From NCBI GenBank assembly GCA_963674825.1, contig OY771587.1:1024001-1088000 (forward strand): a DNA stretch of 64,000 nt, given 5' to 3'. Source of the stretch: Candidatus Cloacimonadales bacterium. Its GTDB lineage: Bacteria > Cloacimonadota > Cloacimonadia > Cloacimonadales > JAIOQZ01. The notes below the pieces were generated by a model, which did not search any database, was not told the origin of the DNA, and worked only from the letters and a program-made list of their open reading frames with translations. Positions 17,501 to 61,282 of this stretch are shown here, one piece after another. Position 1 is the first letter of the stretch, and each line of letters starts with the position of its first letter. A program made the translations under genes and the position numbers.

Positions 17501-17794
17501 CTGGGTACACAGACGTCCTCGTCTGCCCCTCTTCTCCCTAATCCCTATAGAAAATCATTGACCATAATATATGTTCCATTTTGTATTTGTGGCATGGATA
17601 AGCAACAGGGCTGGCACGTTCGGGGATATCTCCCACACTTTGATGGAGATCCGGAACGAAGAATATTATTTAAGTACAACCAGATATATCAGAGATAATC
17701 TTGTTTCAGCCGGGCTTGTTTCTGCACCCGAGATGTGGAAATGGTCTTCGGCATATAAACAGTGAAATGCAGACGAGGACGTCTGCGCACCCAG
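17501..17794 (+). pseudogene. Internally deleted REP-associated tyrosine transposase (RAYT-like) flanked by inverted REPs
   Basis: N-terminal MDKQQGWHVRGYLPHFDG (from 17594) joined out of frame to C-terminal IRNEE...RYIRDNLVSAGLV...WKWSSA (17649-17765); REPs at 17501-17526 and 17768-17794. Confidence 0.8.
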
Positions 17795-28028: not shown

Positions 28029-28143
28029 TGCTGCTCCCTATTTCAGGTTCATTCAATATTCCATTTGATCAGAAATGCAAATCCTTGACAAGAAGAAATC
28101 ACCCGAAGATGTTTCCTCATCACGAGTTTTAAGGAGAATCGCT

Positions 28144-29043
28144 ATGAAATACATCGTCAGCCTGCTTATCTTATTCGCTGCATCGCTGCTTGTTTCGCAG
28201 GAAGTGATCAGCATCGAAGTACCGGAGATGGACACCCTCTCCCTGTCCGCCAGCGCAACCTTCCAATACAAGGAAATCGACGAATCGAGCGCAATCGTTA
28301 AGAGCCGCCAGTTCGAAGGCGTTTTCTGGACGCTCAATGACAGCGGCGACCGTGCACGCATCTTCCCTTTCACCCTCGACGGTAAAATGGTCACACCCGA
28401 ATGGTACCCGGAATACGATGGCCTCGATATCAAGGACGCGGTTAATATCGACTGGGAAGACATCGCAGCCGACGACAAGGGCAACCTTATCATCGGAGCT
28501 TGCGGCAATAACGGCAATACCCGCAAGGATCTCGCATTCTATATCGTGCAGGAACCTGTTCCTAACGATGTTATCGCGACTCGCTACACAAAGAAGATCC
28601 CGTTTCGCTATCCCGATCAGGAAAAGTTTCCTCCCAAGAAACGTAACTTTGATTGCGAAGCTGTTTTCTACGCCGATGGGCACATCTATGTTCTCTCCAA
28701 GAATCGCTCCGACACCAATACCACGCTCTACCGGCTCGACAGCGAAAGCCAGCAGGAAGTCAATGTGTTGACCAAGCTCGCGACATTCGACGTCAAAGTC
28801 GGCCTTGTGACTGCTGCAGACTGCACGCCAGATGGCAAAAAGCTCGCCGTTCTCACCTACGGTAACATCTGGATTTTCAGCAGCGACACACCGGGTGAGT
28901 GGTTCAACGGCTCAATTCGGTACATGCCGATCAAGGCAAAACAATGTGAAGGTATCTGCTGGGATGGCGATAAACTTGTCATGACCAACGAGCAGAAAGA
29001 TATCATGCTGGTCCCGATGGATAAATTCGTGAAGGTGCAATAG
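28144..29043 (+). CDS. Secreted beta-propeller-like hypothetical protein
   Basis: Signal peptide; ESSA..WTLNDSG, DWEDIA, GNNGN.R, DCEA, QCEGI; AAGGAG RBS. Confidence 0.75.
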   Translation: MKYIVSLLILFAASLLVSQEVISIEVPEMDTLSLSASATFQYKEIDESSAIVKSRQFEGVFWTLNDSGDRARIFPFTLDGKMVTPEWYPEYDGLDIKDAVNIDWEDIAADDKGNLIIGACGNNGNTRKDLAFYIVQEPVPNDVIATRYTKKIPFRYPDQEKFPPKKRNFDCEAVFYADGHIYVLSKNRSDTNTTLYRLDSESQQEVNVLTKLATFDVKVGLVTAADCTPDGKKLAVLTYGNIWIFSSDTPGEWFNGSIRYMPIKAKQCEGICWDGDKLVMTNEQKDIMLVPMDKFVKVQ

Positions 29044-29062
29044 CTACAGGTTTTCCGCCCAG

Positions 29063-29185
29063 TAGATTCGTTCGATCCCACGGATAACGTGGTGTTTCGC
29101 GCTATTATTCTCATGTCCGGTAGTCAGGATAGCGCGGTATATCCACGTGATCTGTGGGATCGGGCGAAGATGCGGGTGGATGCAA
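29063..29185 (+). ncRNA. Unclassified structured element, copy A (candidate ncRNA)
   Basis: Six conserved blocks and co-varying stems shared with 60185-60309. Confidence 0.55.
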
Positions 29186-29186
29186 C

Positions 29187-30809
29187 CTATTCACACACCG
29201 CAACAATACGATAGAACCGAACCGGGGTATCCACCACCATCGCATACTGCGTCACGGACGTTTCCGCGACATCATCCCACATCACTTCGTCCACGCTCGA
29301 CTGCACACGATACGATGTCGCGCCTAATACAGCCTCCCACTCGATCCGAACGGTGTCCGCAATCACCTCTACTGTCAGATTCCGCGGCGATACTAACTGC
29401 GTAACATATTGGTATCTGAATGGATCACCGGCTCCTGCCATTGGCAGAACGCGCCGTTTACCCGATTCGTCCACCGCATACAGGTAATACTTAACGGTTG
29501 CTTCTGTACCGGATGCCGGTATCGTCGCAACGTAGGATTCACCCTGCTGATAAAGTTGCGTTGTGGTATAAGCGCCGTCATCGAACCGGTAATAGACAAG
29601 TAGCGAATCTGAGATGAGTGCTGCATTGCTGTAAGAGTGAATGGCAGCTTCCAGTTGAACATTACTGGTTGCATCCTGCACCACATGCACAGGAATGTAG
29701 CGCACATCCAGCATATGCTTATCCGGAATTTCGTGCACGCGGCAGTGAAGCGCGTCAGTATCATACCAACCGGAATAGGTGACGCCAATGACTTCGTAAC
29801 CCGGCATAGCAGCCTCATACGTCGCAATCGCTTCGTCGTCCCACTCACTTCCTGATAACGGAACCAGCACCTTATTATTCAGAATCAACGAATTGGTGTA
29901 GGGTGTGTATGGAGATCCTGTTGCCGGCGTATAAATCCTGAAAATCTCATATGGTGTACCATAGGAAGAGGTCTGCTCTGCAAAATACTGCGCGATCTCC
30001 TCGAAATCAGAATACCTCGCATCGGCGGCAGGGACCTGCCCGATCATTACCTTATCGACATCCAGAAATTTCGCCCAGCAATCCACATGCTTGATGTATT
30101 CACCCAATGGATCCGGAAGGATGTGATAGGTCTCGATACCGAGGTAATCATGATGAAGCTGAACTAACTCCGACTCTGTCAGATCGGGATTTTCATCCAG
30201 TACCAGATCGGTTGAGACCGCTACGCCCATCCCATCGCACATGTAGTTACCACCAGTTTGCACAACACTCATTCCATATAATCCAAGCGTATCGAACGCA
30301 GCATACGCGATGGGAATGTCATCATCCTCGGGACGCGGACGATTGTACTGGAAATCGACCACACTCATGGAATCGCTCAGATCGAAGATAAAAAAGGGAC
30401 CGTAGTCACGCGTCCAAATGGAGTTGGTCGGCGCAACCATGAAGCGGCAATGATTGAGGTTGACGCCGAAATTGGTGTATTGGTTGATCGCCTGCTGGCG
30501 GTAATATGCGCTCGAAACGATCGTCACGAGAATATCGTCCTCTGCGAGTTCTGCCACCAGGCTGTAGGGAATCCCGAGGGGATAGCGGATCATCGTGCCA
30601 GTCATTGGTTCAAATTCAGCGATCTGCCGGATAGGAGCTTCTGGCGGATCGGTCGGTATAAAGGTACGACTTTCCAGATTCTGCTCTGCGGAAGTCTTCG
30701 CATGAGGTAGAGAATGAGGGTATCGCCGCTGCCCTTCGCCGCTCTCAATATTTACAGCAAACGCGGTATAAACAAAGAAAAACAATCCGAAAAACAGCGT
30801 ACGTCTCAT
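29187..30809 (-). CDS. Secreted agmatine/peptidyl-arginine deiminase family protein
   Basis: AEFEP, WTRDYGP, GGN, HVD, LHC motifs; signal peptide; FN3-like tail. Confidence 0.9.
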   Translation of the reverse strand: MRRTLFFGLFFFVYTAFAVNIESGEGQRRYPHSLPHAKTSAEQNLESRTFIPTDPPEAPIRQIAEFEPMTGTMIRYPLGIPYSLVAELAEDDILVTIVSSAYYRQQAINQYTNFGVNLNHCRFMVAPTNSIWTRDYGPFFIFDLSDSMSVVDFQYNRPRPEDDDIPIAYAAFDTLGLYGMSVVQTGGNYMCDGMGVAVSTDLVLDENPDLTESELVQLHHDYLGIETYHILPDPLGEYIKHVDCWAKFLDVDKVMIGQVPAADARYSDFEEIAQYFAEQTSSYGTPYEIFRIYTPATGSPYTPYTNSLILNNKVLVPLSGSEWDDEAIATYEAAMPGYEVIGVTYSGWYDTDALHCRVHEIPDKHMLDVRYIPVHVVQDATSNVQLEAAIHSYSNAALISDSLLVYYRFDDGAYTTTQLYQQGESYVATIPASGTEATVKYYLYAVDESGKRRVLPMAGAGDPFRYQYVTQLVSPRNLTVEVIADTVRIEWEAVLGATSYRVQSSVDEVMWDDVAETSVTQYAMVVDTPVRFYRIVAVCE

Positions 30810-60141: not shown

Positions 60142-60170
60142 AGCCCACGGCGCAAACCGTGGGTTTTCTT
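60142..60170 (+). terminator. Intrinsic terminator
   Basis: AGCCCACGG/CCGTGGGTT plus T-run. Confidence 0.85.
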
Positions 60171-60184
60171 ATATCTCCACACGA

Positions 60185-60309
60185 TAGATTCGTTCGATCC
60201 GGCGCTGGAGGCGTGGTGTTGCACGGCATAAGATCCGTGTCCGGTAGTAATGAATGACGTGCTATATCCACGCCGGAGGCGGATCGGGCGAAGATGCGTG
60301 TGGATGCAA
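60185..60309 (+). ncRNA. Unclassified structured element, copy B (candidate ncRNA)
   Basis: Homologous to 29063-29185 with compensatory stem changes. Confidence 0.55.
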
Positions 60310-60445: not shown

Positions 60446-61282
60446 ATGACGTTTCAGGACATGATATTCGAGCTTCAGCGCTACTGGGCCGCATACGGAT
60501 GCAACATCCTTCAGCCCTACGATATGGAAATGGGGGCCGGCACCTTCCATCCGGCCACATTCTTCGGTGCGCTGGGTGAAAAGCACACCAAAGTTGCCTA
60601 CGCGCAACCCTGCCGCAGACCCAAAGACGGCCGCTACGGCGAGAACCCCAACCGCATGCAGCACTACTACCAGTTCCAGGTCATCATAAAGCCGACCCCG
60701 GACGACATCCAGAACCTCTACATCAAGAGCCTGGAAGCCATCGGAATCGATATTTCCAAACACGACATCCGCTTCGTGGAAGACGACTGGGAATCGCCCA
60801 CCCTCGGCGCGTGGGGACTCGGCTGGGAAGTATGGCTGGACGGCATGGAAATATCGCAGTTCACGTACTTCCAGCAAGTTGGTGGCATCGATGTATTCCC
60901 CGTCAGCGTAGAGCTGACCTACGGTCTCGAACGCATCGCGATGTACATCCAGAATGTCGATGACTTCAAAGACATTCAGTATAATGAGACCACCAAATAC
61001 GGCGAACTATTCTACCGTAAAGAGCAGGAATTCAGCGCGTTCAACTTCAAACACGCCGATGTCAAATGGCTCTTTGCCACCTTCAACGAACTGGAACGCC
61101 AGACCATAGAACTGGCCGAAGCCGGCATGGTTTATCCCGCGTACGACTACCTGCTCAAGAGCTCGCACACCTTCAATCTACTCGACGCCCGTGGCGTTAT
61201 TAGCGTTACCGAACGCGCCGCCTATATCGGCCGCATTCGCAGAATGGCGAAGATGTGCGCGGAGAAATTCCTGGAAGCATGA
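60446..61282 (+). CDS. glyQ: Glycine--tRNA ligase alpha subunit
   Basis: [45 protein letters not shown]. Confidence 0.98.

Follow-up and report, generated by a model that had tools for sequence, protein, structure and literature searches.

The question raised by this locus is whether two similar hairpins are copies of a structured RNA gene or of a mobile DNA element. The window, by which we mean the whole stretch of 64,000 nt that was analyzed, is part of a complete 3.89-Mb genome of Candidatus Cloacimonadales (G000). A sequence-only reading had described an element at 29063..29185 (copy A) and a second one at 60185-60309 (copy B), with six shared blocks and compensatory changes in the stems between them. 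All six blocks are found where it had placed them, and so are the stem changes. The two copies are 73% alike over 128 columns (E 1.4e-12, whole-genome blastn). As RNA, the + strand folds with z-scores of -7.0 (A) and -3.5 (B); as DNA, the values are -7.0 (A) and -5.3 (B). The element is real, but its true 5' start is about 9 nt further 5' than had been thought: Positions 29054-29060 pair with 29174-29180. We call it the rod repeat. The parts of both copies and their neighbors are the following:

29054..29180, + strand: copy A, entire rod hairpin of the medium class, between two convergent genes
29054..29060, + strand: copy A, outer stem, 5' strand, with partner 29174-29180; its sequence differs from site to site
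29062..29077, + strand: copy A, outer box, 5' strand; three pairs, then tandem G.A/A.G, then 11 pairs that include two T.G wobbles
29089..29096, + strand: copy A, inner box, 5' strand, with an invariant G.T pair and a T.T mismatch
29115..29123, + strand: copy A, loop motif found in the medium class, which repeats the outer-box 5' strand in degenerate form
29138..29146, + strand: copy A, inner box, 3' strand, including an invariant bulged T
29158..29173, + strand: copy A, outer box, 3' strand
29174..29180, + strand: copy A, outer stem, 3' strand, which the sequence-only reading had called a tail
28075..29043, + strand: neighbor gene with no Pfam match, ending about 10 nt 5' of copy A
29187..30809, - strand: peptidyl-arginine-deiminase-family gene, whose end is 6 nt beyond copy A
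60142..60165, + strand: terminator-like hairpin just 5' of copy B and outside the element, similar to the REP that adjoins a Y1 transposase at another place in the genome
60176..60304, + strand: copy B, entire rod hairpin of the medium class, flanked by a gene for a small membrane protein and by glyQ
60446..61282, + strand: glyQ (glycyl-tRNA synthetase alpha), downstream of copy B

Covariation, which had been thought unprovable from two copies, is real. In an alignment of 22 copies, 93.5% of the cells pair, with two-sided changes at 21 of 41 pairs. A larger set takes in the medium copies with the loop motif, namely B and 61 of 79 candidates. Here pairing holds in 95.5% of the paired cells and two-sided changes are found at 27 of 39 pairs; none of 500 shuffles, which ignore the relatedness of the copies, matches this value. 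Template switching between the arms of a hairpin can also produce compensatory pairs. It does not explain the fixed non-canonical positions: a G.T pair (62/62 copies), a T.G pair (60/62), a T.T mismatch (61/62), a bulged T (62/62) and a tandem G.A (54/62). Departures from canonical pairs comprise 90 wobbles and 22 A.C, so the + strand is the folding strand. The U-G pairs of the closing stem had been taken to favor a plus-strand RNA; the + strand does fold, but wobbles cannot tell RNA from DNA.

The essential parts are best seen in G001, a genome of the same genus: an outer box, an inner box at a distance of about 11-12 bp from it, and a tip of anything from almost nothing to about 300 nt. The stems that join the two boxes are free in sequence, and one short class has its inner box flipped. 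The outer stem, missed at first, varies between sites yet stays paired and covaries. Its 3' strand is what had been considered a conserved tail, GTGGAT, a sequence found in only 11 of the 62 copies, which means that the suggested pairing of this tail with ATCCAC is not general either. The supposedly conserved terminal loop belongs to one class only: It is present in 61 of the 79 medium copies of the fetched loci, and the short and long classes have other tips. With a tip of a few to about 300 nt, neither the loop nor the tail is a general feature. The 7-mer of the loop is a repeat of the outer 5' strand, able in principle to pair with the outer 3' one (97.5% of the cells). This pairing shows one two-sided change in 434 cells, not above shuffles; no pseudoknot is supported and the shape is a plain unbranched rod. 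A K-turn reading of the G.A motif has been discarded, the covarying register gives a 1-nt bulge and not a 3-nt one.

The rod repeat is not limited to these two copies. Searches of G000 with A and B as queries (blastn and nhmmer) give 16 strong copies, and motif scans with class models bring the total to 35 full copies (16 medium, 15 short and 4 long) and 4 partial ones. The 14-nt 5' box, with one mismatch allowed, has 103 matches in G001, 21 in G002 and 26 in G003, the other three genomes of the same Cloacimonadales genus; the reversed control has 0. The rod repeat is not an RNA gene present twice.

Its distribution comes from searches at the DNA level, with covariance models and with patterns. 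Each of the four genomes of the genus contains the rod repeat and no other genus does, among 232 genomes of the phylum; four sister-genus genomes searched have none. It is found in 4 of 41 genomes in a search of relatives and in 3 of 151 in a wider search, in which G002 was not drawn and at most 21 candidates per genome were scored. In the phylum search 5 of the 232 genomes matched, the fifth by chance (a single match in G052, dropped on its sequence alone). A genome collection gives 46 matches, 41 of them labelled Candidatus Cloacimonadales; the other five lack the fold or the boxes and are due to chance. The same applies to six of seven metagenome matches, the exception being contig L197, discussed below. 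The inner pattern has no match in metagenomes. Three patterns of the element have none in viral contigs, where a further motif gives 66 loci, none of them carrying the full element. In plasmids and phages, blastn with copy A gives only chance matches of 20-28 nt. The earlier statement that the element matches no known RNA family holds: Rfam has no match in the window in either gathering or E-value mode, and seven copies reach at best 26 bits against a cut-off of 100, with generic miRNA hairpins. No description of this family was found in the literature covered, which includes few subscription journals. The rod repeat is real and strongly structured, an apparently undescribed repeat of a known broad kind.

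The orientation of the copies follows replication. In G000, dnaA (1.658 Mb) coincides with the GC-skew minimum, and a dif-like site is found at 3.494 Mb (near 3,494,285). The folding strand is on the leading-strand template, that is, on the genomic lagging strand, in 34 of 35 full copies (p 2e-9), and in 37 of 39 when partial copies are included. According to the gene calls made in this analysis, 1505 of 2902 genes (52%) are on the leading strand, despite a clear GC skew. Five other repeat patterns of G000 are unbiased: 5/9, 19/34, 4/6, 16/26 and 4/8, the last of them palindromic and counted on both strands. In G001 (dnaA at 2.766 Mb; terminus taken to be at 0.90-0.95 Mb), the rule holds for 48 of the 65 copies fetched (p 1.5e-4). 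Seven of the 17 exceptions have a lagging-like local skew, which does not explain the other ten. The only full copy of G000 in the opposite orientation, at 2.93 Mb (G000:C1:2932539-2932689), has inner arms that form a near-perfect palindrome, apparently a product of template switching.

Among copies of G000 with co-directional flanks, 9 are sense and 8 antisense. On the other hand, 54 of 72 rows of the G001 neighbor table have an opposite-strand gene on the 3' side (at least two rows are partial or chance matches), so transcription may matter too. Copies are found between convergent genes more often than expected (17/39, compared with 112/953 gaps, p 1e-6), and they often begin within 10 nt of a stop codon. 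A consistently adjacent protein gene was not found: There is no fixed partner gene and no gene family recurs beside the copies, nor is a relative of glyQ present beside any other copy in this genome. Neighbors in G001 are almost all ordinary genes with counterparts in G000, with four orphan proteins of at least 90 aa beside the 72 rows.

With 35-100 intergenic copies in a single genus, a precise fold and a facing set by replication, the rod repeat looks like a small mobile DNA element. The mobile option had already been offered beside a functional noncoding RNA, and it is the one that gains support. We consider it reasonably probable that the rod repeat is a non-autonomous mobile repeat recognized as a folded single strand, comparable to bcr1, attC sites or MITEs. 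A transposase or recombinase acting in trans would bind both boxes where the DNA is single-stranded at a replication fork. The polarity could come from directed insertion; alternatively, as has been argued for attC, copies may be lost when their folding strand is on the lagging-strand template, which is exposed. The stems may be shuffled and repaired by gene conversion at the boxes together with template switching between the arms.

The folded molecule might instead be RNA, either a structured RNA in many copies or an element of mRNA ends. It would have spread as a repeat and be bound by a protein through its boxes, and the loop 7-mer might act as a conformational switch by displacing the outer 5' strand. 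G.U pairs and tandem G.A are typical RNA motifs. The + strand is the more stable one as RNA in 61 of 62 copies, the gap between strands in folding energy is larger as RNA (-72.7 versus -57.7) than as DNA (-36.9 versus -33.1), and the excess of wobbles and the potential loop pairing would also fit. There is a precedent, bcr1 of the Bacillus cereus group, which is described as transcribed with a conserved RNA structure in the part of the source available (PMC3184786). Nevertheless, orientation in G000 tracks replication and not genes, no consensus promoter was found close to A or B, the loop pairing does not covary above shuffles and the loop is missing in many copies. We regard an RNA element as unlikely. 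A ribozyme or riboswitch is very improbable in spite of the invariant non-canonical positions: The copies are dispersed, they adopt all four orientations to the neighboring genes with no fixed context, Rfam contains no ribozyme or riboswitch that matches, the rod is unbranched, its tip is dispensable and its inner box is flipped in one class. A switch RNA, also suggested at first, meets the same objections. A caution for RNA discovery follows: Strong covariation with G.U and G.A motifs can arise from a repeat family.

The near-perfect polarity in G000 would also suit a signal domesticated by the host, a polar hairpin on the leading-strand template that serves fork restart, repriming or the strand-specific loading of a protein. 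Every copy keeps its fold, including the site-specific outer stems, and some sites are common to several species. However, the rod repeat is not found outside one genus, sister genera included, its copy number differs about threefold, most sites are lineage-specific, and 17 of 65 copies in G001 are reversed, ten of them not explained by local skew. We find this proposal improbable.

The enzyme of such a mobile repeat would be absent from these genomes or unrecognized in them. G000 contains three transposases of the Y1/RAYT type (C1:60500-60900, 127300-127700 and 316700-317100), each flanked by its own, different REP family, and G001, the richest genome in copies, has no Y1/RAYT match. In these two genomes no copies flank a Y1 transposase gene, as they would in REP/REPIN systems with RAYT. 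The REPs of the Y1 loci and BoxC-like repeats often adjoin copies in G000, G002 and G003. In the window, positions 17646-17747 (+ strand) match weakly the profile of a REP-associated transposase (NF047646, E 0.0035), perhaps a remnant. No IntI integrase is found above the TIGR02249 cut-off in any of the four genomes. IS110 is only present in G002, being absent from G000, G001 and G003. G000 has neither a PF01609 transposase nor a reverse transcriptase. The other three genomes have one or two reverse transcriptases each; two of these loci, read gene by gene, have no copy around the gene, the one in G001 being about 3 kb from a copy. The IS91-type Y2 transposase has no match in 8 genomes, and none in the control genomes either.

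Some insertion sequences are close to individual copies: a DDE element about 40 bp from a copy in G001, a DDE element near two copies in G003 and ISL3 near one copy in G001. They have been rejected as mobilizers: Where checked, sister copies of these sequences lack the element. The DDE and ISL3 elements that adjoin single copies appear to have inserted independently. Insertion sequences are numerous in G002 and G003. A role of XerC/D at the boxes has also been rejected, as these show no resemblance to the dif-like site near 3.494 Mb.

Relatives with terminal repeats give some indication of where the family comes from. Contig L197 has the outer box of copy A at 16/16 and 15/16 bases, and about ten of the matching bases are outside the search pattern. 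The box is mid-way in a rod of roughly 200 bp (L197:730-935, z -11.2). This element has terminal inverted repeats of 21 bp and a duplication of 3 bp, and it splits a RelE/ParE-family toxin gene at profile positions 60/61, leaving the downstream antitoxin intact; blastn does not find it in plasmids and phages. The outer box has therefore moved as MITE cargo at least once. In L198 (G051; 1-100 and 155-316) the same type of terminal repeat encloses another hairpin, and in L290, a contig of the viral collection, a rod around 1501-1532 with the tip motif of L197 and two tandem G.A junctions has other terminal repeats. We infer that these ends are of the IS5/PIF type, from their GGG ends and T/A-rich 3-bp flanks. 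The rod repeat resembles these MITEs in the outer box (L197) and in being a rod punctuated by tandem G.A (L197 and L290). Unlike the L197 type, copies in the genus are devoid of terminal inverted repeats and target duplication, and they carry an inner box that L197 lacks. Judging from this one contig, the rod was probably the internal hairpin of MITEs with IS5-type ends, whose terminal repeats were later lost. L198, L290, L352 and L385 contain rod-like repeats with common hairpin modules (tip motif, tandem G.A junctions) and different terminal repeats, possibly a broad modular superfamily of MITEs. We draw no link between the purine loop of the middle stem and a motif of the L198 MITE, since the two are alike in only 26 of 120 copies.

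Among 120 copies, no offset outside the stem gives a signal of target-site duplication; terminal inverted repeats exceed the 99th percentile of mismatched flanks in none, pairing ends after 6-7 bp. Sites are only partly shared. Copies at a G000 site amount to 6 of 21 in G003 (one element counted twice), 4 of 12 in G002 (one doubtful) and, by our own reading of the neighbor table, about 7 of 72 in G001. Syntenic empty sites exist, too diverged to give junctions at base level. The class may differ at a shared site, and in just 1 of 13 cases does the counterpart prove to be the closest copy of G000. Cores which are 96-99% alike carry different outer stems, still paired, and different flanks. This points to the exchange of cores through the boxes or to repeated insertion at favored sites. 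Copies come and go between species, and sites exchange their cores. There are no identical copies at unrelated sites, and hence no proof of current movement; the sites kept across species would fit a host function too. No excision joint was seen at copy A in contigs of three runs (contigs lose rare variants, and one run barely covers the site), and no long form with a gene between the arms exists in G000.

A bolder version of the mobile reading deserves mention, although it is doubtful. The rod would be the substrate of an undescribed system of single-strand transposition or recombination which reads two non-canonical boxes at forks, requires neither terminal repeats nor a known HUH, DDE, IntI or RT enzyme, and swaps cores between resident sites. 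The selfish unit would then be the hairpin rather than the end of the transposon, given that ordinary MITEs contain the same boxes too.

How does the rod repeat compare with known systems? The closest is bcr1, which has a fixed orientation to replication. The likeness is meant as one of kind, not of sequence family: Both have many copies, a single lineage, a covarying fold and non-conserved positions. In the text available of two sources, bcr1 shares a length of about 150 nt, tens of chromosomal copies, compensatory changes and the lack of an identified mobilizer, but it forms a cruciform with two stem-loops and 5-bp direct repeats (PMC3184786, PMC6542083). The rod repeat lacks a duplication and consists of one rod, with two boxes and a tip that varies.

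The attC sites of sedentary chromosomal integrons are also read by their fold, with two boxes, unpaired bases and a variable tip, and their polarity, which limits excision, is the same: The leading-strand template carries the folding strand in 25 of 30 integrons, as given in the available part of the study, and in 34 of 35 copies here (PMC5371416). In view of this layout and polarity, and of an AT-rich 313-aa gene found between two copies with identical 5' flanks, the copies might be solitary attC-like sites of an unrecognized site-specific recombinase that moves or captures genes. This is quite improbable. The lack of IntI and of cassette arrays excludes membership in attC, no attC-type core triplet is apparent by eye, the boxes are long and conserved and not a 3-nt core, and single copies lie between ordinary genes, almost all with G000 counterparts.

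With REP, REPIN and BIME the rod repeat shares the intergenic location of imperfect hairpins near gene 3' ends, without duplication (PMC3733652, PMC6006769, as far as the accessible text goes), but its arms are not REPs, Y1 genes have other flanking repeats and G001 has no Y1 match. A replication bias is also found in IS200/IS605 ends. In the available part of the source, IS200 families lean with the advance of the fork while IS91 and ISL3 genes lean against it (PMC3971601); the folding strand of the rod repeat points against the fork, like the latter and unlike IS200 families. Nothing like the rod repeat appears in the available parts of papers on REP and TIR families (PMC3733652, PMC6006769) or of a stem-loop survey (PMC2267715). 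Its unusual points are the replichore polarity, the two-box layout and the missing enzyme.

These results bear on how short structured repeats without an enzyme of their own, such as those like bcr1, ERIC or BOX, spread and keep their fold. The family offers a clean handle: about 120 sequenced copies, sharp covariation, two defined boxes, unbiased repeats as internal controls and a 97% replichore polarity. The mobile reading predicts a protein that binds the folded strand.

A few individual loci may be added. The two copies that bracket the 313-aa gene (G000:C1:444690-446230, GC 37%) are each preceded by a REP-like hairpin, and the gene is missing at the matching G003 site. G003 contains two tandem duplications that include a copy each: L076:8677-9113 (307 bp), which also repeats the 3' end of the upstream gene, and L067:1703-2270 (432 bp). 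In G001, the tip of one copy has grown to about four tandem units of roughly 60 nt (L102:5208-5590). Directly downstream of another copy, and upstream of a thiazole-synthase-like gene, G000:C1:167700-167800 has a sequence resembling a TPP riboswitch.
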